Origin: a plasmid
Length of the DNA stretch: 51,160 nucleotides
Sequence record: NZ_CP115194.1
Direction: 5' to 3' (one strand)
Below are positions 3,331-27,381 of this stretch, piece by piece. The translations under genes were made by a program, and so were the position numbers. Each line of letters begins with the position of its first letter. Position 1 is the stretch's first letter. The notes beneath the pieces were generated by a model. It worked only from the letters and a program-made list of their open reading frames with translations. It was not told where the DNA came from and did not search any database.

Positions 3331-3368
3331 GGGGAGCCCGCGGAATTCGGAAAAAATCGTACGCTAAG
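3331..3368 (+). repeat. Tn3-family 38 bp terminal inverted repeat (left)
   Basis: GGGG...ACGCTAAG, the hallmark ends of Tn3-family inverted repeats. Confidence 0.8.
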
Positions 3369-3474
3369 CCTCAATGCCTGCGCCGGCAGGCCTTTGCGTC
3401 TTGGCTCTGAGAATGAAGCCTCGGAACGGCTGAGATTGAACGTTCCCCAACTGCTTTATAGCTTTGGCGACAGA

Positions 3475-3750
3475 TCAGCGATCTTCACGGGTGTGCCACA
3501 GACGCAGCAGATAGATGGTAGAGCTCGCAATTTCGTAGCGCATCTCGTAATGCCCGACCAGAATCCGCCGCACGTCACGCGGATCGAACTCTTCCAGGCG
3601 CTCACCGATGCGCGGGTTGGCCAGCAGCTTAGTCGGTGCGCTCGTTAGTTGCTGCACGGTACGTGCCGCAGCGGGACGGTTCACAGCCGCCAGGAACTCA
3701 TATAGTCGAGTCAGATCGGACAGCCCCTTGTTCGTCCACTTCAACTCCAT
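3475..3750 (-). CDS. parE: ParE/RelE-family toxin
   Basis: 91 aa, beginning MELKWTNKGLSDLTRLYEFLAA and ending YLLRLWHTREDR. Its start overlaps the upstream antitoxin stop. Confidence 0.8.
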   Translation of the reverse strand: MELKWTNKGLSDLTRLYEFLAAVNRPAAARTVQQLTSAPTKLLANPRIGERLEEFDPRDVRRILVGHYEMRYEIASSTIYLLRLWHTREDR

Positions 3751-4022
3751 CAGCGCGGCACCGGCACCGGAGTGTCAGCACTAAGGCTATCGGCCCAGGC
3801 CTGGACTGCCTGATGGTCAATCACGCAGCCGGCATCCACATCAACCAGAGCCTCGCGGGTCAGGCGGCTACGCTCGTCTTCCTGGTCGAGCCAGGCTGTA
3901 AGAGCCTGCTTGACGATCCAGTTCTTGGAGCGCTCCAGGCGCTCTGCGATGTCATCGACTCGTTCGGCCAACTCTATGGGGACATGGGCGGTGACAGATC
4001 TGGTTTTGGCGTTAGCGGGCAT
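3750..4022 (-). CDS. parD: ParD/CopG ribbon-helix-helix antitoxin
   Basis: 90 aa. The N-terminal RHH fold (VTAHVPIELAERVDDIAERLERSKNWIVKQAL) is followed by a toxin-neutralising tail. Confidence 0.8.
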   Translation of the reverse strand: MPANAKTRSVTAHVPIELAERVDDIAERLERSKNWIVKQALTAWLDQEDERSRLTREALVDVDAGCVIDHQAVQAWADSLSADTPVPVPR

Positions 4023-4224
4023 GATGGTTACCTGCGGCTCGATTTAAAATTAATCATAATAAATAAAATAGAAGCGTCAAGCATGAATGTCAGATTGAAC
4101 TATACCCTAACCGGATGTCAGATAAGGTCGCGCGGCTCCGTCAGAATAGAGTCCACTTTCGCGTTCTTTGACACATGCCCGCGAAGGTCATAGATTTCAG
4201 CCTGACAAAATCGTTCAGGGCGCA
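4023..4224. promoter_or_regulatory. putative res site / divergent promoter region between parD and tnpR
   Basis: AT-rich 200 bp region, contrasting with the 60% GC surroundings, with repeated TGTCAGAT-like half-sites. It lies where res sits in Tn3-family elements. Confidence 0.4.
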
Positions 4225-4839
4225 ATGGAACCAAAAACCAACGTAAGCCCTTACCCCCATCCAACCCATGGAGGCATCTTGCAGGGACACCGTATCGGCT
4301 ATGTCCGGGTTAGCAGCTTCGACCAGAACCCGGAACGCCAACTGGAACAGACCCAGGTGAGCAAGGTGTTCACCGACAAAGCCTCGGGCAAGGACACTCA
4401 GCGTCCCCAACTCGAAGCGCTGCTGAGCTTCGTCCGCGAGGGCGACACCGTGGTGGTGCACAGCATGGATCGCCTGGCCCGCAACCTTGATGACTTGCGC
4501 CGCCTGGTGCAGAAGCTGACCCAGCGCGGTGTGCGTATCGAGTTCCTGAAAGAGGGCCTGGTCTTCACGGGCGAGGACTCGCCCATGGCCAACCTGATGC
4601 TTTCGGTGATGGGGGCCTTCGCCGAGTTTGAGCGTGCACTGATCCGCGAGCGGCAGCGCGAGGGCATTACCCTGGCCAAGCAGCGCGGCGCGTACCGGGG
4701 CCGCAAAAAGGCCCTGTCCGACGAGCAGGCAGCTACCCTGTGGATGCGGGCAGCGGCCGGTGAGCCCAAGGCTCAGCTCGCCCGCGAGTTCAACATCAGC
4801 CGGCAGACCCTCTACCAGTACCTCCGCACGAACGAGTGA
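4225..4839 (+). CDS. tnpR: Tn3-family serine resolvase
   Basis: Contains GYVRVSSFDQN (catalytic Ser) and a C-terminal HTH (ISRQTLYQYL). Start set at the internal ATG at 4225. Confidence 0.8.
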   Translation: MEPKTNVSPYPHPTHGGILQGHRIGYVRVSSFDQNPERQLEQTQVSKVFTDKASGKDTQRPQLEALLSFVREGDTVVVHSMDRLARNLDDLRRLVQKLTQRGVRIEFLKEGLVFTGEDSPMANLMLSVMGAFAEFERALIRERQREGITLAKQRGAYRGRKKALSDEQAATLWMRAAAGEPKAQLAREFNISRQTLYQYLRTNE

Positions 4840-4909
4840 GCTGCAATGCAGGTAACACCTTCTGTCGCGTAGAACCAACCAGATTCAAAGAGTTTAGCTC
4901 GGACGCTTC

Positions 4910-6142
4910 ATGCACGAAGGTATCGAAGCCGTACCCGATAGTGATGTGCCCCTGAACTATTGCTACGGTTTTCGCTCTCTGCCCGGCAGCGAGTTCGTTG
5001 CGAGCGACGAAATCTGTATTTATCTCCTGTCCATACAGGAACTGCATGTTGGCCTGAAGGGCCTCAACCTTTTGACCTATGCCAAGCTGTCCTGGCTGCA
5101 AGCCTGGCACATCCGCGACGAAACCTATTCGGCGGCCCTGGCCGAGTTGGTCAATCATCAATACCGCCATGTTTTTGCCGCTCACTGGGGGGACGGCACT
5201 ACCTCATCCTCCGATGGCCAGCGCTTCCGGGCTGGCGGCCGGGGCGAGAGTACCGGGCACGTCAATCCGAAGTACGGCAGCGAGCCGGGGCGGTTGTTTT
5301 ACACCCATATCTCCGACCAGTACGCGCCGTTCAGCACCCGCGTGGTGAATGTCGGCGTGCGCGACTCCACCTATGTGCTCGACGGCTTGCTGTACCACGA
5401 GTCCGACCTGCGGATCGAGGAGCACTACACCGACACGGCTGGCTTCACCGATCACGTCTTCGCCCTGATGCACCTGCTGGGCTTCCGCTTCGCACCACGC
5501 ATCCGCGACCTCGGTGAAGCCAGGCTGTATGTGCCGCAGGGCGTGCAGGCCTACCCGACGCTGAGGCCGATGATAGGCGGCACCCTGAACATCAAGCACG
5601 TGCGCGCCCATTGGGATGACATCCTGCGCCTGGCCAGTTCGATCAAGCAGGGCACCGTCACCGCCTCACTGATGCTGCGCAAGCTCGGCAGCTATCCGCG
5701 CCAGAATGGCCTGGCCGTCGCCCTGCGCGAGCTGGGCCGGATCGAACGCACGCTGTTTATTCTCGACTGGCTGCAAAGCGTCGAGCTGCGCCGCCGCGTG
5801 CATGCCGGATTGAACAAAGGTGAGGCGCGCAACTCCCTGGCCAGGGCGGTGTTCTTCAACCGTCTAGGGGAAATCAGGGATCGCAGCTTCGAGCAGCAGC
5901 GCTACCGGGCCAGCGGCCTCAACCTGGTGACGGCGGCCATCGTGCTGTGGAACACAGTGTACCTGGAGCGCGCCACCCAGGCGGTGGGCGACATGGGCAA
6001 GCCGGTGGACGGCGATCTGCTGCAATACCTGTCGCCGCTGGGCTGGGAACACATCAGCCTGACCGGCGATTACGTCTGGCGGCAGAGCCGCAGGCTGGAA
6101 GACGGGAAGTTCAGGCCGCTACGGCTACCCGGAAAACCTTAG
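4910..6142 (+). pseudogene. tnpA: Tn3-family transposase, C-terminal 410 aa only (the N-terminal ~580 aa are deleted)
   Basis: Contains [15 protein letters not shown] and the C-terminal [12 protein letters not shown] motifs of Tn3 TnpA. Only 1.2 kb lies between tnpR and the inverted repeat, whereas a full tnpA is ~3 kb. Confidence 0.8.
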
Positions 6143-7571
6143 CGTACGATTTTTTCCGAATTCTGCGGGCTCCCCTTTCATAGACGTGCTTCCAGGGTTT
6201 GACGTAGACGTCATCCTCGAACGAGACATAGAAGGTCTGCCCGGGGCGGATAGTGACGGTGGGGACGATGTTGAGGTACTTCTGGACCAGGCTCGAAGCC
6301 TGCCGGCGACTGCTGTCGCCGACGTCGCCGGCGAACGTCGAATCGTTGTCGGAGCCAGATCCGGAGCGACTGGTCGAGCTGCCGATCAGCGCGTAGGCCG
6401 CCACTCCCAGGAACTGGGACAGCAGGTGATAGTCCACCTGGTCCGCGATCGCGGCGACCCCTTCGCGGTCCAGGCCGGCGGCCTTGGACAGGTCGATCTT
6501 GTTGCCACCTGGTAGGATTACCCAATCGTTGGTGATGCCCATCCGGTGCTGGATGGCCTCGTTGACGTTGCCGGCCTTGTGCACACGCATGATGATCTCG
6601 GAGCCTTTCGGGATCGCCACGTACTGCCGGGTAATGTCGTAGACGTCTCGGCTGACCAGCCCCTTGAGCTGGCCACCCTGGAAGTCGCTGACGCCCTTGC
6701 GCATGAACTGGGCCGGGATCTCGGTGCCGGGAGGCAGCTTGAGCATGCCCTCGATATCTGCGTTGTAGGCATTCTCCTTCGTGTATCCGACAACATCGGT
6801 CGGCGCCGGCGTGAAGGTTTTCTTCACCTGCTCGAGTTCCTCGCGCTTCTGCGCCAGGAAGGAAGGCTCTTCACCAGGCGGCGCGGACTGAAGCTCTTTC
6901 CGCAAGCGTTCTGCGGCCTCGATCCGCTGCCGCAAGTCCTTGCGGCGCGCTTCGAGGCTGCCCCCGGTCTGGGTCGGCGAATTCAGCAGGTTCTGAGCCT
7001 CGGCCGCAGAGGTCGAATATGGGCCTCGACTGGCAACGGCCACTCCTGCGCCGCCGCGCTGAGCCTTCGCCACCGCATCGGTGTAGCCCCAAGGGCTCTG
7101 AGCGCTCTTCAGAGCGCGCATGCGCTCCTCACTGCGCCACTTCGCGTAAGCCTTCTGTTCTGCAGAAGGCTCGCGCGCCTTGCCCTTGCCCTGGCTCGCC
7201 TTGCTCGTGTCGTCACGGCCCTGGAACTGCGACCAAGCCTGCTGCCCCGTTGTCTTCAGCTCGCCGGCGGCCTCGTCCACTTGTTCCTGGAACGAGTTGC
7301 GCTCGGACAGCCGCGATTGCTGCCGGGAAACGAGATCTCCGAACTGGCTGGCCCCTGCTCCCATGTTCGAGGACTGCCGTTGCTGCTGCCGCTGCTCGGC
7401 CGCTGACTGTCGGGACCCACTGCCGCCGTTGGCTTTGAACCAGATGAAGTTGAGCACAAGGGCAACCAGGATCAGCCCGATCGAGGCCAAGAGCCAGCGC
7501 TGTAGCTTCGTCCTGTGCGCGGCCGGGCGCTCCCGGATCCGCGGCTGTGCTTCGTCAGCCATGGTGGTCAC
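6111..7571 (-). CDS. VirB10/TrbI-like T4SS protein; its 3' end is disrupted by the Tn3-family insertion, so the last ~21 codons read into the inverted repeat
   Basis: N-terminal TM segment, a Gln/Pro-rich linker, and a C-terminal conserved domain (…[19 protein letters not shown]…[11 protein letters not shown]…). The native frame, reconstructed across the insertion, ends KHVYEELADY, overlapping the ATG of the next gene. Confidence 0.6.
6138..6175 (-). repeat. Tn3-family 38 bp terminal inverted repeat (right)
   Basis: Reverse complement is GGGGAGCCCGCAGAATTCGGAAAAAATCGTACGCTAAG. Confidence 0.8.
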
Positions 7572-8413
7572 TCCCCGAAGGTCTTCGCATCGGCCCGGGA
7601 AACGCTGATTCGCGCGTCGTCGACGCGCAGCGTGAAGGACGGGTAGATGCCGTTGATGGTGTACATGCCGTAGGCGTCGTCGTAGCGCACCGGCACGATG
7701 GCGTTCTTCTCACCGATGACCGACTCGACGGACAGCAGCCCGCGGTTGGGGGTGTTCAGCCGGATGTATGTGAACCGACCGTCGTCGTACACGTCTGAAA
7801 TGAGGTTCTGCGCGGCGAAGCCCTTGCCCTGGTCCCAGCTGTAACGGGTGTAGATGTGGTAGCGGTACCGCCGCAGCGCCTCCATGACGGCCTTACGGCT
7901 ATTGTCCGCGGCCGCGCGCCGCTCCTCGGCCATCTGCTGGGTCAAGGCCGCGTTCTGCTGGGCGAAGGCGGCGCCCTGCCGCATCTGCGCGCTGGAGAGG
8001 TTCTGCAGGCCTGCCCGAGCCGAGTCATTGAAGAACTGGCCGTCGGTCTTCACGATCACGCACGGTTCATTCTGTGCGGCCGCGACCCGGCGAAACATGA
8101 AGTCGTAGGCGTTGCCATCGGTCGTGAACGCTCGAACCATGGTTTCGACGCCCTCGGGCTCGTTGACCGAGTTCGGCTTGACCAGCATCACGGTGGCGGC
8201 GCCATCGACGTCCCATAGAACCTTGTTACTCGGCACCTTCGTCACCAGGTCAACGGGGAATTGAACGCGAGTGCCAAGACTCACAGCGGAGGAAATGGTC
8301 ACGACCGTTCCCTCACGCCAGTGAATTTCGCGGCAGGCCGTCGGCGCGGCTGCAACTCCTGCAGACGCGGCGAGAGAGCCCAGCACAAGAATGGAGGAGA
8401 TGAACTGTTTCAT
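7568..8413 (-). CDS. VirB9/TrbG-like T4SS protein
   Basis: Signal peptide and a C-terminal beta-rich domain. It sits between the VirB8-like and VirB10-like genes. Confidence 0.55.
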   Translation of the reverse strand: MKQFISSILVLGSLAASAGVAAAPTACREIHWREGTVVTISSAVSLGTRVQFPVDLVTKVPSNKVLWDVDGAATVMLVKPNSVNEPEGVETMVRAFTTDGNAYDFMFRRVAAAQNEPCVIVKTDGQFFNDSARAGLQNLSSAQMRQGAAFAQQNAALTQQMAEERRAAADNSRKAVMEALRRYRYHIYTRYSWDQGKGFAAQNLISDVYDDGRFTYIRLNTPNRGLLSVESVIGEKNAIVPVRYDDAYGMYTINGIYPSFTLRVDDARISVSRADAKTFGE

Positions 8414-9198
8414 TGGGGTTGAACCTCGCTGCGCTTCGCCTTGATCCCTGCCGGATCGTCGATTTCTTCGTAGTCCACGATTTCAAGTCCAATCGGATTG
8501 ACGTCGAGGATCTTGGTGTTCTTCGAGGCCAATTCCTCGAGTTCTTTCTTATCCACCAGGCGCCACTGTAGTCGCGCGATCTTGGCACTCCTGCTCTTCT
8601 CGAACCCCTGCGGGCTCGTCGAGATTTTGGTGTAGTAGATATTGGTCCGCACAACTTCCGACGATTTGTTGGAAAAAACAGCCGGCACAGTGTCGTAATG
8701 GTCGATCCAGATATCAGCTATTGAGATGCGGTCCTCTGTCGCTTCTTTCGCAGCGATAGCAGCTGCCTTCTTGACTGCATCGAAGCCGCCGTTCTTCTCT
8801 TCATCGACAAAGCGCTGATACAGCGCATTAGAAACGAGCATCCCCACCTGGCCGTAGTCCCTCGTAATGGTCGGTGGGAACACACCGAAACGCACTCTGA
8901 TGAAGTCTTTCAGCAACGCATCAACCGTCGCGGGCAGATACTCTTGATAGGGCTGACGTTTGAAGTACGAGATTTCCCTGTTCCCATTCGGGTACAGCTT
9001 CACGTAAGCGATTTCAAGATTGCGAGAGGCCTTTTCGGCCATCGACGAGAGAGAAACCGAAAGCACAACGATGGCAACCACAAGAACAAGAATAGCCACC
9101 AGAAGCCAATTGATAGTCACCTGAAGTTTAGTGTCTCGCCGTGGCTGATCGCTTTTTTCAGCGCGAGCGATCCCCGTGTTGTCAACTATGCCAACCAT
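8410..9198 (-). CDS. VirB8/TrbF-like bitopic T4SS protein
   Basis: Single N-terminal TM segment (WLLVAILVLVVAIVVLSV) followed by a periplasmic domain. It lies between the VirB6 and VirB9 analogues. Confidence 0.5.
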   Translation of the reverse strand: MVGIVDNTGIARAEKSDQPRRDTKLQVTINWLLVAILVLVVAIVVLSVSLSSMAEKASRNLEIAYVKLYPNGNREISYFKRQPYQEYLPATVDALLKDFIRVRFGVFPPTITRDYGQVGMLVSNALYQRFVDEEKNGGFDAVKKAAAIAAKEATEDRISIADIWIDHYDTVPAVFSNKSSEVVRTNIYYTKISTSPQGFEKSRSAKIARLQWRLVDKKELEELASKNTKILDVNPIGLEIVDYEEIDDPAGIKAKRSEVQPQ

Positions 9199-9210: not shown

Positions 9211-10368
9211 TTAGAAGAACTTCTTGGTAACCCCTCTGGATACCATGTTTGCAGCTTTTCCTAATGCGCCAGACATGCTCCCAGCCCCTGAAGCTAGTAT
9301 CGATGCGAATACAAAGCTGGAAAGTACGAAAAGTACCGCGACAAAAAGAGCAGCAGCAGAATCCGCCAACAAATACAGTTGTTCCTTCGCAAACGGGACA
9401 ACCTCCGTTGGCTCGCCCCATGCTCCGTTGAAGTTCATGCCCAGGTCGTAAAGGGTGAATCTCACCAACAGCGCAGAAAGGACCATCGTCGCCTTCAGGA
9501 TGACATTCAGAATGATGAACCCCACGAAGAACCTAAGCCAACCATCGAAGAGCGGACGCGTACTCTCAAGCATATAAAACGGGATAAATACAACCCCAAC
9601 GATCTTTGCCAAACCATAGCCAAGCTCAGACCACATGGAAGCCAGCCAGTAGACAGCCTCAAGCAGAAAAGCAATGAACTCCCAGGCAGTGGAATACTGC
9701 CAATACTTTATGCCGTCCCACAGCCCCATATCCTCGAGCTTGACGTTATCAAAAGCGATCTTTACCCACTGTATGAAGAAGAAGTTATCAGTATTGCCTA
9801 CTAGGAACGACTGCATCCCCTGAGATATGGCGACCCCGACACCCCACATTGCGCTCGTGCCATAGTCGTATCCAAGCCAAAAAGCCACCGTTATAGATAA
9901 CGATACAAAAGCGGCCACCAAGCGCAGTGTATTAAGCCCATCCAAGACGAATATCGTTGCCTCGGAGACAATCAGGACGAAGAAACAGAACCGCAACAGC
10001 ATCCTGGACCATTGATTAACCGGGTTCGTGTAATCCCCCATGATGCCCACCACGAACCGGCTGACTTCACCGGCGAAAACACTTCGGAACGTCTCCGACA
10101 GCGCCGCATCCGCCGTAGCAGGAATCATCAGTAGCAGAGGTGAGAAGAACAGTGCGGCCCAGGCAAGCGATTGGCCACCGATCCTCACCCACCTACGCTG
10201 CCACCACCGCCCGCTAGTTCCCGCACGGCTTGCCTTCATGACCGGCAGACTGGCCAGGGATACCCCGCTCGCTGCTAGCAAGCGAGCGTATCTCCAGCGC
10301 GAGAACAGGTAGCCCGACGCACCGAACATCAGTGCGCACATAACTACCACAAGCCACATAGTCGACAT
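9211..10368 (-). CDS. trbL: TrbL/VirB6-like polytopic T4SS membrane protein
   Basis: At least eight hydrophobic segments and a Gly/Ser-rich C-terminus (GAGSMSGALGKAA). It is downstream of TrbJ and the exclusion-like gene. Confidence 0.6.
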   Translation of the reverse strand: MSTMWLVVVMCALMFGASGYLFSRWRYARLLAASGVSLASLPVMKASRAGTSGRWWQRRWVRIGGQSLAWAALFFSPLLLMIPATADAALSETFRSVFAGEVSRFVVGIMGDYTNPVNQWSRMLLRFCFFVLIVSEATIFVLDGLNTLRLVAAFVSLSITVAFWLGYDYGTSAMWGVGVAISQGMQSFLVGNTDNFFFIQWVKIAFDNVKLEDMGLWDGIKYWQYSTAWEFIAFLLEAVYWLASMWSELGYGLAKIVGVVFIPFYMLESTRPLFDGWLRFFVGFIILNVILKATMVLSALLVRFTLYDLGMNFNGAWGEPTEVVPFAKEQLYLLADSAAALFVAVLFVLSSFVFASILASGAGSMSGALGKAANMVSRGVTKKFF

Positions 10369-10396
10369 TCGAATGCCCTCAACCCCGTAGCAGCTA

Positions 10397-10933
10397 TTAC
10401 TCGGTAGAGTAAATGGATCCTTCTAAAACTTTGTCCCCACCAATTTCACAATATTTTCTTATAGGACTACCGGCCAACTGCTTTTCACATGGGAAGTAAA
10501 AAGAAAGAGGTCCGCTGAACGTTCTTCTTCCGAAGATATGCTCCTGTATCCAGCTAGCTTCTGATGCAACTTGCTGAGATGTAATCTCACCTGGACGACC
10601 TCGTAACGCCGGCCTTGCCACATCATAAATTTTTTTCAACTTAACTAGTTGTTCTTTAGCCTGAGCCTCCGTCAGACCAGAGTAGTTTTTCTTCGAGTAT
10701 GGTACTGAGCCGCGCGGGGGAAACTTCGCATTAGCTTCATCAATATAGACCTGCCTGCACGCCTCTCTTTCTCCAACGTTTTTCTTGCTCCCGCATTTTT
10801 TTGCTGCCAACTTAAAATACTCAAGCCTGTTGAGATCATATTTCTCTTGACTCTTGTCAAAGTATCTATCAGCAGCAGCAACGCCAACAGACAAAGGCAA
10901 TGCCAAAACCAAAAAGACGATCTTAATGTTCAT
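10397..10933 (-). CDS. secreted Cys-containing protein in the trbK (entry-exclusion) position, allele 1
   Basis: Signal peptide MNIKIVFLVLALPLSVGVAAA. The C-terminal 34 aa are identical to the paralogue at 12445-12975, while the N-terminal part is ~50% identical. Confidence 0.4.
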   Translation of the reverse strand: MNIKIVFLVLALPLSVGVAAADRYFDKSQEKYDLNRLEYFKLAAKKCGSKKNVGEREACRQVYIDEANAKFPPRGSVPYSKKNYSGLTEAQAKEQLVKLKKIYDVARPALRGRPGEITSQQVASEASWIQEHIFGRRTFSGPLSFYFPCEKQLAGSPIRKYCEIGGDKVLEGSIYSTE

Positions 10934-10946
10934 ATCTTAACCATCC

Positions 10947-12416
10947 TCACCAATCAGCCAAGGGGGAGTTATCAATCTTAATCCTTTGCTTCCGCTTCTC
11001 CGCTAACTCCCTCAAAGATGCTTCCTTAGATTCCTTTTCCTTGGAGAAAACAAAAGAGGGTAACTGATTTGAATACTGGAATCTTTTGTTCTGCTGATTC
11101 AGACTCTGTATCTGCAACTCCAAAGACTTCTGGTTTTGTTCCGCAAGAAATTGAAGTGTCTTTAAATTATCTTCATCGCCCAAAGCTAGACGAACAGAGT
11201 CCAAGTCATCAAGCTCTAGAGCATTGACCTCAATCATGTCCTGTTGCTGTTGAACCACGTCGACTTGGTCAGTGGCCATATCCACTCGGTTGGATGCCTG
11301 ATTTATCTCGGTCATGATTGATTTTCTACCGTTCCCGGAGAAAGGAATTGTGTCAGCGATCGACTGAATCTCTACAATCCTCCGCCCTCGAGCATATATT
11401 TGATCTACTCTAGCGTTGATTCTCTCCCACTCTGCATCACTTCTCTGGTTCTGCCCTGGATATATATCAAAAATATCCTTATAACTGGCATACAGTGCTT
11501 TCCAGTCCCTGGGACTCAACTTGCGCTTCAGCGACTCCATTTGACGCAGCACCTCGTCATATGCAACGAGAGTCTGCTTATAAAGCCGGAGAGCCTCCGC
11601 AAGCTGCTCTTGGTTCAGGACTGTTGTTTTAATATATTCATCGTAGTTTTTCAGGTCCTGAATATAGCCTTGCTCAGACCACATGGAAGCCAGCCAGTAG
11701 ACAGCCTCAAGCAGAAAAGCAATGAACTCCCAGGCAGTGGAATACTGCCAATACTTTATGCCGTCCCACAGCCCCATATCCTCGAGCTTGACGTTATCAA
11801 AAGCGATCTTTACCCACTGTATGAAGAAGAAGTTATCAGTATTGCCTACTAGGAACGACTGCATCCCCTGAGATATGGCGACCCCGACACCCCACATTGC
11901 GCTCGTGCCATAGTCGTATCCAAGCCAAAAAGCCACCGTTATAGATAACGATACAAAAGCGGCCACCAAGCGCAGTGTATTAAGCCCATCCAAGACGAAT
12001 ATCGTTGCCTCGGAGACAATCAGGACGAAGAAACAGAACCCCAACAGCATCCTGGACCATTGATTCACCGGGTTCGTGTAATCCCCCATGATGCCCACTA
12101 CGAACCGGCTGACTTCACCGGCGAAAACACTTCGGAACGTCTCCGACAGCGCCGCATCCGCCGTAGCAGGAATCACCAGTAGCAGAGGTGAGAAGAACAG
12201 TGCGGCCCAGGCAAGCGACTGGCCACCGATCCTCACCCACCTGCGCTGCCACCACCGCACGCTGGTTCCCGCGCGGCTTGTCATCACCATTGGCAGACTG
12301 GCCAGGGATACCCCGCTCGCCGCCAGCAAGCGAGCGTATCTCCAGCGTGAGAACAGGTAGCCCAGCGCACTGAACATCAGTGCGCACATAACTACCACAA
12401 GCCACATAGTCGACAT
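10947..12416 (-). CDS. chimeric ORF: TrbL/VirB6 N-terminal ~250 aa fused in frame to a TrbJ-like C-terminal ~240 aa
   Basis: The N-terminus is ~97% identical at the DNA level to 9630-10368. The C-terminus is ~75% identical at the amino-acid level to TrbJ at 12986-13837. The junction is at ~11683 with ATAGCC microhomology. Confidence 0.5.
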   Translation of the reverse strand: MSTMWLVVVMCALMFSALGYLFSRWRYARLLAASGVSLASLPMVMTSRAGTSVRWWQRRWVRIGGQSLAWAALFFSPLLLVIPATADAALSETFRSVFAGEVSRFVVGIMGDYTNPVNQWSRMLLGFCFFVLIVSEATIFVLDGLNTLRLVAAFVSLSITVAFWLGYDYGTSAMWGVGVAISQGMQSFLVGNTDNFFFIQWVKIAFDNVKLEDMGLWDGIKYWQYSTAWEFIAFLLEAVYWLASMWSEQGYIQDLKNYDEYIKTTVLNQEQLAEALRLYKQTLVAYDEVLRQMESLKRKLSPRDWKALYASYKDIFDIYPGQNQRSDAEWERINARVDQIYARGRRIVEIQSIADTIPFSGNGRKSIMTEINQASNRVDMATDQVDVVQQQQDMIEVNALELDDLDSVRLALGDEDNLKTLQFLAEQNQKSLELQIQSLNQQNKRFQYSNQLPSFVFSKEKESKEASLRELAEKRKQRIKIDNSPLADW

Positions 12417-12444
12417 TCGAATTCCCTCAACCCCGTAGCAGCTA

Positions 12445-12975
12445 TTACTCGGTAGAGTAAATGGATCCTTCTAAAACTTTGTCCCCACCAATTTCACAGT
12501 ATTTTCTTATAGGACTACCGGCCAACTGCTTTTCACATGGCAAGTAAAAAGAAAGAGAACTACTTAAAGTGCGTCTTCCGAAGATATTCTCCTGAATCCA
12601 GCTGGCTTCTGCCTCCACAGCATTCTTTGTCAGTTCTCCTGGATACGCTTTAGATCCACCATGGGCTTTCTCGTAGATACTCTTTAACTCGATAAGCTTC
12701 GCCACAGCTTGATCCTTGCTCATTCCAGAATAGTTTTTCTTCGAGTAAGCCGAGCTCCCTCTAGGTGGGTATTTTTCATCCGCTTTGTCGGTTATTTTTT
12801 TCTCGCAGGTGCGCCTTTCCCCAACAGTCTTCAAATGAGAGCAGCTAGATCGAGCAGTCTTAAAATACTCTGCCCTCTTCATGTCGTAGCTTTCTTGCGC
12901 CTTATCTATATATCTCTCAACAGCAAAAGCGCTAGTGGACAGCAACATTACGAAAATCAGTGAAAATATTTTCAT
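12445..12975 (-). CDS. secreted Cys-containing protein in the trbK position, allele 2
   Basis: Signal peptide MKIFSLIFVMLLSTSAFA. It keeps the C-terminal block FYLPCEKQLAGSPIRKYCEIGGDKVLEGSIYSTE. Start set at the internal ATG at 12975. Confidence 0.4.
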   Translation of the reverse strand: MKIFSLIFVMLLSTSAFAVERYIDKAQESYDMKRAEYFKTARSSCSHLKTVGERRTCEKKITDKADEKYPPRGSSAYSKKNYSGMSKDQAVAKLIELKSIYEKAHGGSKAYPGELTKNAVEAEASWIQENIFGRRTLSSSLSFYLPCEKQLAGSPIRKYCEIGGDKVLEGSIYSTE

Positions 12976-12985
12976 GTCTAAACTC

Positions 12986-13837
12986 TTACCAGTTTGCCAA
13001 AGGAGAATTATCAACCTTGATTTTCTGTTTTCTCTTCTGTTCTAGCTCTTTCAAGGATGCTTCCTGATTTTCCTTGTCCTTAGAAAAAACATGCGAGGCT
13101 AGTTGATTAGAGAACAACATGCGACTGTTGCTCTGGGCCATACTTTCAACCTGAAGCTCTAGTGCCTTTTGGTTCTGTTCCGCAAGGAACTGTAGTGTTC
13201 GTAAATTATCCTCATCACCAAGAGACAGGCGGTTCTCATCCAGATACGTGAGGTCCTCCATGTTGTCCTTCAGCTTTTGATTGAACTTCTCTACAGTGTT
13301 CGATTGAGACACTGCAAGATCTGAACGAGTAATCGCACGATTCAAGTCACTCGCAACAGTTTCTCGCCCATTGCCTTTGAATGGAATAGCGTCAACGATC
13401 GACTGAAGCTCGACCATTTTCTGTCCTCGAGCATAGACCTGATCTACTTTCGCGTTGATTCTTTCCCACTCAGCATCGCTGCGCTGAGTTTGGGTAGGAT
13501 ATAGATCGAGAATATCCTTATAACTGGCATACAGTGCTTTCCAGTCCCTGGGACTCAACTTGCGCTTCAGCGACTCCATTTGACGCAGCACCTCGTCATA
13601 TGCAACGAGAGTCTGCTTATAAAGCCGGAGAGCCTCCGCAAGCTGCTCTTGGTTCAGAACCGTGGTCTGAATGTATTCATCGTAGTTCTTCAGGTCCTGG
13701 ATATAGCCCTCAACCATCTGTGTGAGGTTAGCAATATCTGCAACAGGAAAACCCCACGCATTAACCACACTGCTATTAGTCATGGTTGCCATTGATAGGA
13801 ATACAGCTATCGCCAGAGACTTCAACTTGCGCTTCAT
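12986..13837 (-). CDS. trbJ: TrbJ/VirB5-like T4SS protein
   Basis: Signal peptide and the GFPVADIANLTQ motif (matching the TrbJ GIPV-D-NL-Q pattern). The rest is a long coiled-coil region. Confidence 0.65.
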   Translation of the reverse strand: MKRKLKSLAIAVFLSMATMTNSSVVNAWGFPVADIANLTQMVEGYIQDLKNYDEYIQTTVLNQEQLAEALRLYKQTLVAYDEVLRQMESLKRKLSPRDWKALYASYKDILDLYPTQTQRSDAEWERINAKVDQVYARGQKMVELQSIVDAIPFKGNGRETVASDLNRAITRSDLAVSQSNTVEKFNQKLKDNMEDLTYLDENRLSLGDEDNLRTLQFLAEQNQKALELQVESMAQSNSRMLFSNQLASHVFSKDKENQEASLKELEQKRKQKIKVDNSPLANW

Positions 13838-13855: not shown

Positions 13856-15132
13856 CTAAGCGAGTCTCAAGGCCTTCACTGCTTCAGCGATAGCCTTGTC
13901 TACGTCTCCAGGATATTTGGCGAACATCTCTCGGATTACTGGCTGTTCACTGGGCGAGCTGGTCGAGACGACATACTGCTCTGGCTCGACGTTCAGCTGG
14001 ACCACCTGGGCTATATCCGCCTCGGGCTGCCAGATTAACATCTCGCGCTGCGGTCGAAGGGACTCAATGCCGTCAACGATTCCGTCGCTCGCTCCGAAGA
14101 CCGTCTTGTAATGAGATCTCATCTCGGTCGACATTTTCGGCTCTGCCCCGAACAGGAACGTGGTAGCTGCACCGCGTAGCATCTGCCAGTCGGGTATGGC
14201 CGCGTAGTGCTGAGGGCTCTGTGTCCACAGCGTGATTCCGGCGTTCCACTTGTTCCAGGTTCGGACCTTTGCAAGCAGGAACTGCACTGCTCCTGGAACG
14301 TCCAGGAAGTACTGACACTCATCGATCTGCAGCTGTTTGATGCGATCTACCAGCTTTGGATCTTCGAATAGCCTGGTCACCCTGAAAAAGATTTCGGTCT
14401 GGGCGAGCGCTGCGAGCCTATGGTCGTCCTTCAGGCCGCTCAAGTTGTAGATGCCCATCCGCCTACCAAAGGTGCCCAACCCATCTATCTCGTTGTCGAA
14501 CAGGTTGCCGTATATTCCCGGGCGCACCCAGCGCTCCAGCTTCTGCTTAAGGCTTTTCGGGAAGTGGCTATACAGGCCCGAGAGGGTCCGCATGCTGGCC
14601 TCATCAACCCGCAGGATGTCACGGATCGCCCTATCGAGATCAGCCTGTTCATCCTTATCGATCGAACGCAGATCCGCCGACTCGTTGAGTTCGAACATGA
14701 TCCGCAACAGGTGCAGTAGATGCCCTACGAATAACCCGTCCTTCTCCTTCAAAGCCGGATCAGCCGAGAAGAACGCGTTGAAACCGTGACTCGTCGCAGG
14801 GTCCGTGATGCGGAATACTCCCGCATCAGATCCGAAGAAAGCGGCCATCGCCTCGGCACCAGCATCAACACCAATATCCTGGTACAGCCCTCCGAACTTC
14901 ATGAAGTGGCTCGCGATAGAATTCTTCGCGAACGTCTTGCCGGATCGAGTGGGGCCAGTTGCAATAACCAGGCCCTTGTCCGCCAGAAACTCCGAGTACC
15001 CGAAAGCGCAGTTGTCGCGCGTCTGAAGAATGTAGGTGGGTTCCTCCTTAGCCGAGCCCCAGGAGGTCACCCCCTTTTGCGACTTGAATGCGATAGACGT
15101 CGCGCCGGCCTGGCTGCTCGTGAACTCCACCG
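13856..15132 (-). pseudogene. trbE: VirB4/TrbE ATPase, C-terminal half (split by the IS21-family element)
   Basis: Walker A motif GPTRSGKT. The frame joins the N-terminal half precisely once the IS and one ACCG copy are removed, giving 850 aa in total. Confidence 0.75.
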
Positions 15133-15302
15133 TGTCAACAGCAACTCAGAAGTGACCCACCTTGGTGTTTGAACAGCAATTAGGAATTGACCCACCTGGA
15201 GTGTTTTCTAAGCAGCGGCAGTCCCTAGACACGGGTCAAGGCAGTTGCTGGGCGGCAACCTGATTTGACCCAGGGTCAAGTTCACCTGCTGGTCAGCGAT
15301 TT

Positions 15303-17197
<1,895 letters not shown>

Positions 17198-17220
17198 TCA
17201 TTTTCAATGTGCTGCTGACA

Positions 17221-18500
17221 ACCGCACGCATCGACTTCTTCGCGTAGCCGGGAAGCAGGGTCGGGAATAGCTCTATCAGCCCGGCCGACTCCCATACGGC
17301 CGTGAGGCTACTCTCGGTCAAAGCGGTGTGCATCTCTGCGCACGCGCTCTTGAGCTCAAGCGGATTCTCGTTCCACACCACAACATGCGAGTTATACGAG
17401 CCCCAGCGATCCGGGGTGTTCGCCGCATCATCAAGTTCTTTGACCTTCTTGCGGAGGTGATCGCTGTTTTTGAGCTTTTCCTCCATGCCGCTATTCGGGT
17501 TCTCACCGGTGAGAATCGCAGACAGCTTCATGTTCTGCCGGGCCAACTCGTTCGCCTTGTTCCGCAGCAGCATTGACAGCCCGGCCTTGCTGTACGGCAC
17601 CCAGCGGTTGACTACCAGGTAGTTGCCTTTCTGCATCAGCGGGGAGCGCTGAGTCTGGATCCAGATTCCCTCCGGAACGTAACGACCGCCATAGGCGATG
17701 ATGCTCGCGATCCGCGCGTAAACCGGACGGGGACCGTGGAACTTCAGGCAGGTCATGCCGTCGATCTCGACCGGCTCGATGCCCCCGTTGGAAAGAAGGG
17801 CGTCCCAGTTCTCGACCGGCACCTCCTCATGCACCGCACTGTCGAGCAGTGATGGGTTCATGTTCACCAGGGCTCGGTGAAGCGCCCATAGAGACTGGAG
17901 ATTCATGGTGGAGGACCGAGGCGACACCAGCTCCGACCGGCTGGACAGATCTTTCAGACTCGCCTCAAGGAGGTCGGCCTGACGCTGCAACTGCCGCTCT
18001 TCCGCGATCCATGCGTCATGGTTCCGGAACCGCTGCACCAATAGCAGACGGCTTTCCGCCTCGAAGGGCGCTTGAAACAAGTGCTTCAGCATCCCGACGC
18101 TGAGCAGGTTGTTTACATGTTCCTCCGCCGGGCACTCCAACAGCCAGAACAAGCGCGAGTCATTCAGCCGCTGTGAGTTCAGGAAGCGGGAGCGCCGCTT
18201 CGAAAGCAGGTCACTCCGCGGGTCGTCCCGCTCGCGCAATGCAACCCCTTTACCCTCGAAGTGAAAGTAGTACTGGCAGAGGCTCAGGGATGGGTGGAGG
18301 CTCTGGTAAAGGGCGCGCTGAACACTGGAGAACAATCGCCGATCATGTTCTCCCAGGGCTGTCGGGTCGGTCCCACCCATCTCAATACCGCTCAACAGCG
18401 AACCCGCGTAGGTCAGGCAGAATTTCTTCCACACACCTGCCGAGTACAGCTTGCTGTTCAACGGCTCGACCCGCTTTGGCTCCCCCTGATAGCGCCCCAT
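17221..18500 (-). pseudogene. trbE: VirB4/TrbE ATPase, N-terminal half (interrupted by the IS21-family element; the ORF reads on into the IS terminus)
   Basis: Begins MGRYQGEPKRVEPLNSKLYSAGVWKKF…GSLLSGIEMGGTDP, a VirB4-type N-terminus. The ATG is 2 bp after the pilin-gene stop. Confidence 0.7.
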
Positions 18501-24235: not shown

Positions 24236-24907
24236 GGCCCTCGGAAACAGCCGCAAGCTGTTTCCGCAGGGCAGTCGGGTACAGGTGTTTGATTACGACG
24301 AGCTTTTGTCGCCGATAGCTGCACAGGGCGGTGAAGCTCTCCGGCTCTTGCGAAACAGCCACAAGCTGTTTCGATTGGGCGCCCTGGCACGCAGTGTAGG
24401 GAACGGCGCTTGACCAAGCGAGCGAGCAAGTCAGCCGCCTGTAAAGGCCGGCGCAGACGATGCGAAGTGAAGCGCAGGGCGAAGCCGTCGAGCGAGGCAA
24501 AGTCGGCGCCCAGCTTTTCCGAAACAGCCAGAAGCTGTTTCGGGGGGAGCCCGGCAACGCGCTTCAGGTGACGACGCTTCGCCGAGCAAGCGAGCGAGCC
24601 CAGCCGCCCGAACGGGTCGGCGAGGGCAATGCGATGCGCGGCGATGGCGGAGCCGTCGAGCGAAGGTCGGCAGGCTCCCCTGCTCTTCGGAACAGCCAAA
24701 AGCTGTTCCGGCTTTTCCGAAACAGCCAGAAGCTGTTTCGGGGGGCGCCCAGTAACTCGGCCCAGGTGACGACGCTTCGCCGAGCAAGCGAGCGAGCCCA
24801 GCCGCCCGAACGGGTCGGCGAGGGCAATGCGATGCGCGGCGATGGCGGAGCCGTCGAGCGAAGGTCGGCAGGCGCCCCGCTCTCCGGAACAGCCAAAAGC
24901 TGTTCCG
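24236..24907. repeat. array of 8 hairpin motifs GRAACAGC-N5-GCTGTTYC, including a ~197 bp tandem duplication (24520-24716 / 24717-24905)
   Basis: Copies at 24236, 24262, 24351, 24522, 24694, 24719, 24743 and 24887. The spacing is irregular. The ORFs called here are artefacts of the repeats. Confidence 0.6.
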
Positions 24908-25214
24908 GCAGCGCGCGGCCCAGTTCGCGTCAGCGAGGTGGGCCGAAACAAACAGAAGCCTGACAGATGCGAGACGCGCCCACGCGGCTCGCAAGGCACC
25001 GAGGCCCCCCAGGGCCGAATGCCGGTCTGCTCCAGGGACGGCCGTCCAGGCCGGGACCTGGAGTGCGAAGCATCAGGCGACGTGCAGCGCGCGCCCGTCT
25101 GCGCTCGACTACTGAAGCCCGCCAGGGCTGAAGTCGGCGAGAGCGGACCCCCGGGTTCCGGGGTGGAGCAGCTGAGCAAGGGACGGGAGAAGGACCGCGG
25201 CGAAGAGTTGCGGG

Positions 25215-25361
25215 CCCCCGGGGGTTGGGGTTCCCCCCCCCCCGGGGGGGGGGGGGGGGGGGAGAGGGGTGGGCCCCCCCCCCGGGGGGGGGCCCCACAG
25301 GGGGGGCGCCTCCGGGGGGGGGGGTTCCCCCCCCCCCGGCCCCCCCCTGGGGGGGGGGGGG
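25215..25361. repeat. tract of alternating long poly-G and poly-C homopolymer runs (up to ~24 nt)
   Basis: Read directly from the sequence, runs such as ccccccccccgggggggggggggggggggg. This is possibly an assembly or sequencing artefact, or else a hypermutable structure-forming tract. Confidence 0.7.
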
Positions 25362-25437
25362 CCCTCTTTACGATAGCGATGCAAGCGGCCTAACGGTGGT
25401 TGCGACTTGGGTAAGGCGCGCCGCAATCATCGTGTTT

Positions 25438-27381
25438 ATGACAGCCCTACCCGTCTTCGCCCTTGCCCTGTTCGTCGTAGCTGTCTATCAGTTCGGCTAC
25501 GATGGTGGCCAGGAATATTGGCTCATCTGGTTTGACATACTGCTCAACAGCCTACGAGACCTGTGGTGGATAGCCGTTCCTTTCTTCGCCCTACCCTTCT
25601 TCGTCAAGATGCTCATTCTCCGGGTCGTTCGCCCGCGCATTTCCGCCGCCTGGCGAAACTGGGGAGTGATGCAATCAGGCGATGCGCTGAGCGACATTCG
25701 CACGGAAGTGAATAGACTCAAGGCCAAGAACTTTCTTCCCAGCAACTACTACAAGGAGGACGAATTTTTCTTCGGCCTAGACGAAAAGAACATCCCCCTA
25801 TATGCCCCGCTGTCGGTCTACGTGAAAACACACATCAAGGCCCTGGGACCATCCCAGACAGGGAAAGGTGTCTTTCTCGGGGTAGAACTCGATCAAGCCA
25901 TTTGGCGTGGCTGGGGTGCATGGTTCATAGACCAAAAACCCGATGACAACATCGTTCACATTATGAGCGAATCTTGTGAGCGCAACGGGCGCCCCGCAAT
26001 GGTTGTGTGCGACTTAACCGGTTCCCGAGAAACGGGCTATCACCCTTTCAAAAACGGCACTAGGCGCGAGCGTCGCGAACGGATCACCAAAGTTTTGGGA
26101 CTTAATGACTCAGGCACTGATGCGGACCATTACAAGAGAAATGCTAGGCGTGTTTTGGATATGCTAATGCCTCATTGGGATGGAACACTTTCCCATCTGG
26201 CAGAGTTGATACAGTACCCGCCAAACTCGCTCACTAGTTCCGAAAAGAATCTCGTAGACAATTTTGGGGGAAACATCGAATCGTCTCTTGTGGAGATGCA
26301 ATTTATCGATGCTCTCGAACCACTTGGCGAGGGACTAAACATTGAGAAAGAATTATTGGCGGGCAGCGTAGTTTATATAAAGTCTGATCTTCAAGACGAC
26401 GTTATACGCAGAGCTGCAAATTGCTTACTTGAAGAAGTAATTCAGGTAGTTCGCCGAATCAGTCTTTCAAGCACCCCCCATAAATATGTGCAACTCACAA
26501 TCGACGAAGCAAGGTTCATGATGACAGACACTCTTGCTAACTCACTGGCAACTGTTTTATCAAAACAACTCCTGATGACTCTCGCCTATCAAGCAAGAGA
26601 AGATCCGCTCAACTTGACAGATAAAACCCTTAACGGAGACTCGATCAAGAACGGTATTGAAACGAATACACAGATCACGATTGTTCATCGGGCTACTGAG
26701 AAAGAAACTGCCCAGTGGATCTCCGACAGTACTGGAGAGGCTCAAAAAAGCATCACCAAAATGGAACGGGTGGAGCGAAATCAAGGCGGGGCTGAAGAGT
26801 GGACTGGCGAGCGCAGTATCGGACAGCAAGCGGAGAACTTCGTCCATACAAATGTGATTCTGGCACTGCCCCCGCGCGTAGCGGTACTCATCATACCGAA
26901 CGTGCTCAGCACGGTCATGTACAGCTGCTGGGTGCCCTACAAGCATGCGCACCCACTCAGCCATTACGTTGCTCTACAGCAGAGCCAGAAGGACGCTCAG
27001 GGTTCCCCGGCTGCCGTCCCCTCCTCTACTGTTCCAGCCGTTCCCGCACCGATAGAAGCGAGTCCTGAGGACATGATCGGTGATGACCCATTCGCAGAGC
27101 TTGACCAGCAACCGGATGACACGATTCTGTTTGACCAGGAGGAAGACCCCTTCGCAGACGCCGACGATATCCCAGTCGCTGCAGAACAACTCCCGCAAGC
27201 AGATGACGGCCCGTCCGGGCTCACCCCGGAGCAACAAGCCATGATCGACGCGGCTGCAAACAATTTGTTCGCTTCTTCTGCCGAGAAGAAGAACAAGACG
27301 ATGAAGCAAGAGAAGAAATCACCTAGCGGCCAGGGCCAAGACGTGGACCTGTCCTCTCTCGACAACGTAGACGGAATCTGA
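25438..27381 (+). CDS. VirD4/TraG-family type IV coupling protein (T4CP) with an acidic C-terminal tail
   Basis: Two N-terminal TM helices. The atypical Walker A LGPSQTGKGVFLGV matches the VirD4/TraG APTRSGKGVG type. FIDQKPDD follows, and the C-terminus is Asp/Glu-rich. Start set at the ATG at 25438, downstream of the G/C tract. Confidence 0.55.
   Translation: MTALPVFALALFVVAVYQFGYDGGQEYWLIWFDILLNSLRDLWWIAVPFFALPFFVKMLILRVVRPRISAAWRNWGVMQSGDALSDIRTEVNRLKAKNFLPSNYYKEDEFFFGLDEKNIPLYAPLSVYVKTHIKALGPSQTGKGVFLGVELDQAIWRGWGAWFIDQKPDDNIVHIMSESCERNGRPAMVVCDLTGSRETGYHPFKNGTRRERRERITKVLGLNDSGTDADHYKRNARRVLDMLMPHWDGTLSHLAELIQYPPNSLTSSEKNLVDNFGGNIESSLVEMQFIDALEPLGEGLNIEKELLAGSVVYIKSDLQDDVIRRAANCLLEEVIQVVRRISLSSTPHKYVQLTIDEARFMMTDTLANSLATVLSKQLLMTLAYQAREDPLNLTDKTLNGDSIKNGIETNTQITIVHRATEKETAQWISDSTGEAQKSITKMERVERNQGGAEEWTGERSIGQQAENFVHTNVILALPPRVAVLIIPNVLSTVMYSCWVPYKHAHPLSHYVALQQSQKDAQGSPAAVPSSTVPAVPAPIEASPEDMIGDDPFAELDQQPDDTILFDQEEDPFADADDIPVAAEQLPQADDGPSGLTPEQQAMIDAAANNLFASSAEKKNKTMKQEKKSPSGQGQDVDLSSLDNVDGI

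Follow-up and report, generated by a model that had tools for sequence, protein, structure and literature searches.

Positions 9211-13837 of plasmid record NZ_CP115194.1 hold two diverged alleles of one gene cassette of a type IV secretion system (T4SS), stacked in tandem through an in-frame fusion gene. The window, meaning the whole 51,160-nt stretch of DNA that was analyzed, is a complete circular IncP-11 plasmid of Pseudomonas aeruginosa. That the locus originated by the joining of plasmids of two allele classes, A and B, is well shown by sequence comparison with relatives that carry a single copy. Each half of the locus retains a complete gene, X, for a putatively secreted protein that by sequence is a homologue of TrbK of plasmid pKPC_UVA01, an experimentally characterized entry exclusion protein. 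The account that we favor, with moderate confidence, is that a crossover between the two plasmids produced a stack of two exclusion cassettes and that the fusion gene is a by-product of this event.

Architecture of the Tandem Locus

A preliminary description of this DNA, made from the sequence alone, had listed five open reading frames (ORFs) on the minus strand in the order trbJ, secreted gene A, chimera, secreted gene B, and trbL, and all five are present. The trbJ-like gene (12986-13837) encodes a 283-aa, all-helical protein with a signal peptide, was assigned to class A by allele typing, and contains a hypervariable stretch inside the cassette at codons ~108-283. It is followed by the trbK-type entry exclusion homologue X_A of class A (12445-12975), which encodes 176 aa from an ATG with four Cys residues; a longer reading, a 189-aa ORF from a TTG, reaches 13014. 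The chimeric TrbL::TrbJ ORF (10947-12416, 489 aa) consists of trbL codons 1-249 from an A-type parent (11672-12416), which lie inside the upper copy of a 948-nt repeat, and, in frame, trbJ codons 44-283 from a B-type parent (10947-11671), typed J_B at 100%. The second trbK-type homologue, X_B of class B (10397-10933, 178 aa), comes next, and the intact trbL/virB6-like gene from the B-type parent (9211-10368, 385 aa) closes the locus, with its first ~250 codons within the lower repeat copy. Shine-Dalgarno-like motifs stand upstream of both X genes (AAGAG at X_A and GAGGA at X_B). No terminator was found between the genes of the locus, the few terminator-like matches in the region being no more than expected by chance.

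Self-comparison of the region recovered two blocks of direct repeats. One pairs 9616-10563 with 11664-12611 at 96.1% identity over 948 nt, ungapped, and the other pairs 11340-11669 with 13379-13708 at 88.5%. Between the blocks identity falls to ~50-60%, so that a mosaic ranging from 100% down to ~50% runs along a unit of ~2048 nt. The X proteins reflect this mosaic. They are 60.2% identical overall, and the contrast that had been drawn between conserved ends and diverged N-terminal portions is borne out by values of 97.2% for the last 36 aa and 50.7% for the N-terminal 140 aa. The region is also AT-richer than its surroundings, as had been noticed, with a GC fraction of 0.483 at 9211-13837 versus 0.57-0.64 in the flanks.

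Parental Alleles and Origin of the Stack

Most members of the plasmid family contain a single trbJ-X-trbL set, and these single-copy plasmids supply the parents of the two units. Between 11671 and 6177, single-copy B-type contigs (L006, L011, and L012) match the window without a single mismatch over 5498 nt. From 15132 to 11664, up to the junction, the window has 3 mismatches in 3469 nt relative to the single-copy A-type contig L016, and beyond an insertion sequence (IS), from 21242 to 17221, it is 99.93% identical to the A-type contig L017. X_A is a 99% match to the X gene of single-copy A-type plasmids, and the exact X_B protein is present in single-copy B-type plasmids. The two units are therefore not one parental sequence that was duplicated in tandem and diverged later. 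Duplication followed by patchy gene conversion, a scheme suggested by the identity mosaic, was considered and set aside after closer single-copy A and B relatives showed that the mosaic pre-exists in the parents.

Outside the cassette the parents can hardly be told apart. Contigs L016 (class A) and L006 (class B) show 0.0% divergence over the rest of the ~10.5-kb T4SS locus; the cassette itself spans ~1.8 kb, beginning at the end of virB4 and reaching roughly codon 130 of trbL. Its hypervariable core comprises trbJ codons ~108-283 and X codons 1-140, where nucleotide divergence reaches 56%. Synonymous sites in the core are saturated, with a proportion of synonymous differences (pS) of 0.72-0.84 versus 0-0.15 in the flanking genes (0.82-0.83 between the two cassettes of the window), and the ratio of nonsynonymous to synonymous change (dN/dS) is low wherever it is measurable. 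Between classes, amino acid identity of X is 60% for A/B, 53-55% for A/C, ~71% for B/C, and 87% for B/B2. Judged from these sequences, there are at least four old classes of X and the TrbJ C-terminal domain (TrbJ-C), namely A, B, B2, and C, which are shuffled among otherwise near-identical backbones. Because pS is saturated and each unit matches a different extant single-copy allele, the locus is a joining of ancient alleles rather than the product of divergence in place. The preliminary description had pointed to recombination between two related but distinct T4SS gene sets and away from a simple recent duplication. The different single-copy parents and the saturated pS uphold recombination, but the gene sets are not broadly distinct, since the parents are near-isogenic outside the ~1.8-kb cassette. 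As a separate observation, B-class plasmids have an insertion of ~232 bp with a 62-codon ORF between virB4 and trbJ (L006, 4901-5089) that is missing from A-class plasmids, C-class plasmids, and the window.

In the mechanism that we propose, an A-class and a B-class plasmid would have shared a cell, and one illegitimate crossover between them would have fused codon 249 of trbL from the former to codon 44 of trbJ from the latter. This crossover would yield a cointegrate that could then be resolved anywhere in the identical backbone. The product would have the order trbJ_A-X_A-[trbL'::'trbJ_B]-X_B-trbL, in which trbJ and trbL each survive in one intact copy and neither X gene is lost.

The Junction and the Fusion ORF

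Three- and five-way alignments with the parental trbL and trbJ genes place the breakpoint at a single phosphodiester bond, between 11672 and 11671. On the minus strand, positions 11664-11677 read ...TCTGAGC | AAGGCTAT..., where the side ...TGGTCTGAGC is trbL and the side AAGGCTATATTC... is B-type trbJ. The sequence used to represent the A+B junction was CCATGTGGTCTGAGCAAGGCTATATTCAGGACCTG. Microhomology of ATAGCC had been proposed at this point. A GGCTAT/ATAGCC hexamer (11664-11669) is indeed common to trbL and trbJ, but it lies 2 nt 3' of the breakpoint on the minus strand rather than at it, and the two A residues that immediately precede GGCTAT come from trbJ_B.

Residues 1-249 of the chimera are 96.0% identical to the intact TrbL, which agrees with the trbL origin and ~97% repeat identity described earlier, and residues 250-489 are 70.8% identical to TrbJ 44-283 (98.5% over the first 65 aa and 60.6% over the remainder). 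The latter portion had been called a TrbJ-like half at ~75% identity. Its TrbJ origin is upheld, but with 240 of 283 residues (85%) it is considerably more than half of TrbJ. The TrbL portion has several hydrophobic segments, and the TrbJ portion, which is without the signal peptide and the first 43 TrbJ residues, sits behind the TrbL transmembrane segments. A crude hydropathy count, which is not reliable, suggests that the TrbJ portion may face the cytoplasm. A search with the chimera found no other full-length TrbL::TrbJ fusion proteins. The reading frame of 489 codons is real, as had been reported, and the fusion protein is most simply viewed as a by-product of the crossover, because an in-frame join has a one-in-three chance of occurring and a second stack, described in the next section, was formed without a fusion.

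Sister Plasmids and a Second Stack

The A+B junction recurs in the closed plasmid pF052_2 (NZ_CP115229, 46.9 kb; 99.7% for the structure), in the ENA assembly ERZ15614059 NODE_1894, and in GCA_050664915.1. With the window, four sequenced carriers are known, all of one plasmid lineage with at least 99.7% identity. The 35-mer spanning the junction was absent from the metagenome and genome contig collections screened. Relative to the window, pF052_2 has 21 changes, all within 12041-12371 and each to the lower-repeat base, and the ENA contig (L007) has three changes, within 9993-10051 and each to the upper-repeat base. By their sequence pattern, these changes are gene conversion tracts between the two trbL 5' copies. 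The ENA contig ERZ15614059 NODE_1894 (L013, 1-4561) has also undergone a deletion of ~4 kb, in which virB2, virB3, and ~250 codons at the start of virB4 were lost. Two of the four carriers have thus independently lost T4SS function, one by this deletion and the window by an IS in virB4, and both retain the two X genes.

These copies also bear on whether the tandem is a misassembly of reads from a mixed population of A-class and B-class plasmids. Assemblers do have trouble with the repeat, as contigs from two further draft assemblies stop at repeat borders (L020 ends at 11672 and L021 at 12042). The junction is nevertheless the same in a closed plasmid of 46.9 kb and at least three more assemblies of different origin, and the copies differ from one another by conversion tracts, an IS21 insertion, and the ~4-kb deletion, so they represent independent molecules. 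An artefact has next to no probability in light of these data, and the concern that the structure reflects a collapse or expansion of two replicons during assembly can be put to rest.

A second stack was found in NZ_CP077996, from China, with the order trbJ_C - X_C - trbJ_A fragment - X_A - trbL. Its breakpoint, represented by GTGCAGTAGTTACTATTCAAAGGCAATGGG, connects a point 15 nt beyond the X_C stop codon to trbJ_A codon ~153 with a 2-nt microhomology (AT), and is independent of the A+B event. Both stacks contain a complete second X with a ribosome-binding site, and only fragments of the adjoining genes. A candidate third stack, CP093282, was flagged because PLSDB shows two X copies, and it was rejected as a head-to-tail plasmid dimer. 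In this 84,880-bp record (CP093282.1, P. silvicola p2) every gene recurs at +42,440, as expected for a dimer of a ~42.4-kb plasmid that is either true or an assembly artefact, and the plasmid has the virB4-trbJ-X-trbL synteny.

The C+A stack is most informative for an alternative history in which duplication came first. In this history, a tandem of ~2 kb (trbL249::trbJ44) arose within one B-class plasmid, and its upstream copy was later swapped for an A-class cassette by homologous recombination. The elements of such a history are reasonable: homologous cassette exchange between identical backbones clearly occurs, gene conversion between the repeats is ongoing, and a swap of A for B that ended in the identical trbL codons ~130-250 would leave no trace. 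It needs two events where one suffices, however, and no homo-allelic duplication with any junction was seen in the 26 closed family members or the draft contigs that were read. Furthermore, the change from C to A in NZ_CP077996 coincides exactly with the breakpoint, inside 15 nt that lack homology, so a homo-allelic duplication followed by homologous replacement cannot explain the C+A stack. We therefore regard duplication first as improbable for the A+B stack, and a direct crossover between plasmids of different classes as the better description.

Homology of X to an Entry Exclusion Protein

Neither X_A nor X_B has a Pfam (E ≤ 0.01), NCBIfam (E ≤ 0.1), or PDB sequence match, so X belongs to no curated family at these cut-offs, and the same curated models also found nothing in 10 distant family members. 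Pfam did not confirm a DUF1311 label that UniRef attaches to one distant member. Searching 1.84 billion representatives with a profile returned 67 relatives of 140-210 aa, nearly all of them unnamed, and a search for related loci with X alignments gave nothing usable. The AlphaFold2 model of X_B has a mean predicted confidence (pLDDT) of 90.5 and shows a disulfide-containing helical bundle with a small beta element, compact after residue ~24; no specific structural neighbor of the model was found. The identity of X instead came from plasmids. In a tblastn search, X matches a 152-codon gene between "trbJ" and trbL of pKPC_UVA01 and many Enterobacterales relatives (E 6e-10). BLASTP aligns X_B with the product of this gene, TrbK_pKPC_UVA01 (WP_032420232.1), at 33% identity over 143 aa (E 4e-18), and hhalign with a profile of X alleles (A1) gives 98.6% (E 5.7e-16). 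The pKPC_UVA01 operon, virB4-trbJ-trbK-trbL-virB8-B9-B10, is fully syntenic with the window, and a position between the trbJ-like and trbL/virB6 genes is common to the window, pKPC_UVA01, and a Marinobacter plasmid. Homology and synteny together thus support the label "exclusion-like" that the secreted genes had been given, and X homologues form a conserved component of the T4SS clade in Marinobacter and other Pseudomonas plasmids.

Read from the sequence, each X has a putative export signal in the form of a hydrophobic N-terminus that ends in AAA|D (X_B) or AFA|V (X_A). There is no lipobox: these 176-178-aa proteins have no Cys within or adjacent to the signal peptide, and in X_B the earliest Cys is C47. 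TrbK_pKPC_UVA01 itself gives exclusion indices of 300-400 that rise above 2800 upon overexpression, is dispensable for transfer, has an essential C-terminus, and is unusual in being required in both donor and recipient (PMC8923210).

A distant relative, P0009, was observed in another setting. Its gene (6001-6507 in L030-L032; Pseudomonas luteola and others) is at the edge of an F-type or integrative and conjugative element (ICE)-like transfer cluster with DsbC-like, TraC_F_IV, TrbC_Ftype, and S26 peptidase genes, variable left flanks, and no TrbJ neighbor. The X family is thus not tied to TrbJ/TrbL surroundings.

The TrbJ-like and TrbL-like Partners

The trbJ-like product aligns with pKPC_UVA01 "TrbJ" in hhalign at 99.6% (E 9e-24), and deletion of the latter gene abolishes transfer (PMC8923210). 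The window protein has no Pfam or NCBIfam match and no PDB sequence match, including by profile search, and a syntenic Marinobacter homologue reaches PF07996 only below threshold (E 0.0035; 18.2 versus 24.7 bits). An AlphaFold2 model is all-helical with a pLDDT of 49, which is too poor for a fold search. From its position and signal peptide, the product is a putatively secreted helical protein encoded between virB4 and virB6. The name TrbJ, as judged from sequence, rests on this position and on homology to the pKPC_UVA01 gene, with no significant match to a VirB5/TrbJ Pfam model. For the window TrbL, PF04610 is likewise below threshold (E 0.0074; 16.5 versus 25.9 bits), and precomputed tables assign this family to P0118, which is 82% identical to the TrbL half of the chimera, and to the syntenic Marinobacter TrbL.

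Allele typing separates these two partners. TrbJ-C and X classes are perfectly linked in 27 of 27 sources (26 loci and the window). The N-terminal haplotypes of TrbL show no linkage to the X/TrbJ-C classes and assort freely. VirB5-type proteins are located at the pilus tip or stalk, which raises the question of whether TrbJ-C and X form a surface-variation module that changes in response to pilus-specific phages or recipient receptors, with the stack providing alternative pilus tips in the manner of the amplified trwJ-trwI-trwH modules of Bartonella Trw. The hypervariability of the TrbJ C-terminal part, its linkage to X, and the conservation of X homologues in the T4SS clade of Marinobacter and other Pseudomonas plasmids would fit such a module. 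In contrast, the second TrbJ copy is without its signal peptide and first 43 residues and sits behind TrbL transmembrane segments, transfer does not require the closest characterized homologue of X, whose role is in exclusion, and X-family genes adjoin F-type/ICE transfer genes that have no TrbJ neighbor. Surface variation is a very improbable explanation when these points are considered.

Proposed Exclusion Classes and Function

We infer that the IncP-11 X proteins act in exclusion and do so in a class-specific manner for A, B, and C. Each X would be a secreted, periplasm-facing protein that keeps out plasmids belonging to its own class. Mutual exclusion within a class would mean that only plasmids of different classes meet in one cell, which is our proposal for why both stacks are hetero-allelic. 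A plasmid with a stack would then exclude A-class and B-class competitors alike. On the donor side, the strongest candidate for the partner that sets specificity is the TrbJ C-domain, with its perfect linkage to X. A more far-reaching version of this proposal has the trbJ(C-domain)-trbK cassette as a self/non-self locus whose ancient classes are under frequency-dependent selection, with TrbJ as the donor determinant read by periplasmic TrbK and with stacking as a way to widen immunity. We put this version forward tentatively, as a possibility that may well prove incorrect.

Several considerations weigh against a double-exclusion stack formed by crossover. X_A and X_B are 97% identical over their C-terminal 36 aa, and the corresponding region is essential in TrbK_pKPC_UVA01. 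If the donor needs the same TrbK, a double carrier would be excluded by more recipients, and a net benefit is not obvious. The hetero-allelic bias may reflect survivorship, as identical duplications may be lost by homologous recombination or collapsed in assemblies. The window taken alone also fits a duplication followed by allele replacement, because A and B do not differ at trbL codons ~130-250. Specificity of TrbK_pKPC_UVA01 is relaxed, as it also inhibits IncP R751 and IncN R46 (PMC8923210). Lastly, independent stacking events number only two, and all A+B carriers belong to one lineage (≥99.7% identity). The relaxed specificity and the small number of events and lineages are also what would be expected if the second X and the fusion were neutral by-products without advantage, in which case the divergence between the units simply shields the stack from homologous deletion, and a duplication at another site of the plasmid would go unseen or be unstable. 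Neutrality sits less easily with other observations. Both events keep a complete second X with its ribosome-binding site while the adjoining genes are fragmentary. The 948-nt, 96% repeats recombine actively, yet the stack has outlasted an IS insertion, a deletion, and spread to several isolates. Saturated pS together with low dN/dS within identical backbones indicates long-term selection for distinct classes. We consider a neutral stack to be rather unlikely, and we continue to prefer the stacking of two exclusion cassettes.

Comparison with Known Systems

The closest system is pKPC_UVA01, whose TrbK, like X, has an N-terminal signal peptide followed by an A-D-(K/R)-Y-x-D motif and a length of 150-180 aa, in addition to the homology and syntenic operon position already noted. 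TrbK_pKPC_UVA01 exists as one essentially invariant copy (the same tblastn identity among the Enterobacterales matches listed), whereas IncP-11 has at least four classes, two of which are stacked in tandem in each of two IncP-11 lineages. X also has an extra C-terminal beta element of ~25 aa that contains Cys. In the SXT/R391 elements (Eex/TraG, groups S and R) and F-like plasmids (TraS/TraG), discrete exclusion allele classes co-vary with a donor T4SS gene inside highly conserved, recombining backbones (PMC2791158). IncP-11 shares this pattern, with discrete X classes that are 53-87% identical and are linked to TrbJ-C. The systems differ in that the Eex proteins of the former are unrelated inner-membrane proteins and in that the co-varying partner in IncP-11 is the VirB5-position TrbJ, with TrbL unlinked. 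The donor partners in resolved exclusion systems are all VirB6 homologs (PMC12282955). A limited literature search turned up no earlier description of an element in which two exclusion alleles are stacked.

The TrbK proteins of RP4 (IncP-1) and Ti plasmids and Eex of pKM101 (IncN) are also encoded between trbJ/virB5 and trbL/virB6 (PMC8923210), and exclusion by Ti plasmids involves TrbJ acting jointly with TrbK (PMC3907764). Those proteins are lipoproteins of ~60-70 aa, and X is ~2.5 times larger with no lipobox Cys and no Pfam or NCBIfam match; by sequence, X falls outside the RP4 TrbK and pKM101 Eex families. A different parallel is provided by Bartonella. Its Trw T4SS has amplified trwJ-trwI-trwH (virB5-virB6-virB7) in tandem as complete genes that diversified in situ and function in host interaction. 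Both cases have diverged tandem copies of a virB5/virB6 segment within a T4SS operon. The window differs in joining pre-existing alleles from different plasmids and in keeping only the exclusion gene intact twice, with the virB5/virB6 pieces reduced to fused fragments.

Plasmid Family and Other Features of the Window

There are 26 P. aeruginosa plasmids, 35-107 kb in size, that match the segment, and every one belongs to replicon cluster 2025 (rep_cluster_2025). Among them is RP1-1 (LC700336), which covers 87% of a 6.8-kb query at 90.9% identity with the same rep_cluster_2025 and the same synteny, and which is the IncP-11 archetype and reported to be self-transmissible (bioRxiv 10.1101/2024.09.03.610885). 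On these sequence grounds the family is identified as IncP-11. RP1-1 itself has an X allele with ~70% identity to X_B, which resembles class C in this respect. MOB-suite typing in PLSDB labels all 26 members "non-mobilizable", though RP1-1 is reported to transfer, so the relaxase and T4SS of the clade evidently escape current typing models. VirB8, TrbL, TrbJ, and X of the clade are below Pfam thresholds. The ST463 "type I" KPC plasmid was considered as the family and rejected, because the type I reference, pS11-17 (CP138579), is unrelated and its VirB operon is of a different, canonical kind. In its own right, pS11-17 carries anti-CRISPR acrF3, a second acrF-type gene, and canonical VirB1-B11, and comes, like IncP-11, from Chinese clinical P. 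aeruginosa.

The tandem locus is preceded by a virB4/trbE 3' fragment (13856-15130, minus strand; NCBIfam VirB4_CagE, E 5e-19), whose 5' part resumes at 17221, and is followed by virB8-, virB9-, and virB10-like genes, of which the virB8/trbF-like gene downstream of trbL (8410-9198, minus strand) is within the B-type-identical tract. The sister plasmid pF052_2 comes from a Danish cystic fibrosis isolate, and the window equals it apart from three differences. An IS21-family element found only in the window (15133-17220; istA 16106-17176 and istB 15303-16106) interrupts virB4 and is accompanied by a 4-bp target duplication. Because it splits the gene for an essential T4SS ATPase, the window copy is probably not self-transmissible. 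A Tn3-derived element of 2846 bp, also only in the window, is located at the trbI 3' end (3331-6176), where it replaces the last six TrbI codons; it has a 5-bp target duplication, terminal inverted repeats of ~38 bp, and a truncated DDE transposase (4910-6142; Pfam DDE_Tnp_Tn3, E 3e-136). A deletion of ~0.7 kb relative to pF052_2 is placed at 25223-25369. In the same part of the window, GC reaches 0.71 at 24400-25500 and adjoins a 0.49 stretch (25500-27000), upstream of the coupling-protein gene (25225-27381).

Implications

The exclusion family, exclusion groups, and plasmid recombination were all known already. What is new here is that IncP-11 has a trbJ-C/trbK cassette with several deeply diverged alleles, that these are linked to a VirB5-position protein, and that two classes have been stacked in tandem on two independent occasions. 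To our knowledge, the donor-side target of TrbK-type exclusion proteins (IncP, IncN, and pKPC_UVA01) is still unknown. At least four deep trbK alleles linked to the TrbJ C-domain within identical backbones constitute a natural series for locating specificity determinants. IncP-11 plasmids carry carbapenemase genes in clinical P. aeruginosa, and the exclusion classes are possible typing markers for them. Whether a conjugative plasmid can enter a cell in which a relative already resides depends on entry exclusion, which thereby influences competition among resistance plasmids and their recombination. Class-specific exclusion would channel this recombination toward hetero-allelic partners. The two independent tandem-allele plasmids suggest a simple route to broader plasmid immunity and, if the proposal is true, double-allele plasmids would be natural "multi-immune" competitors among mutually incompatible plasmids.

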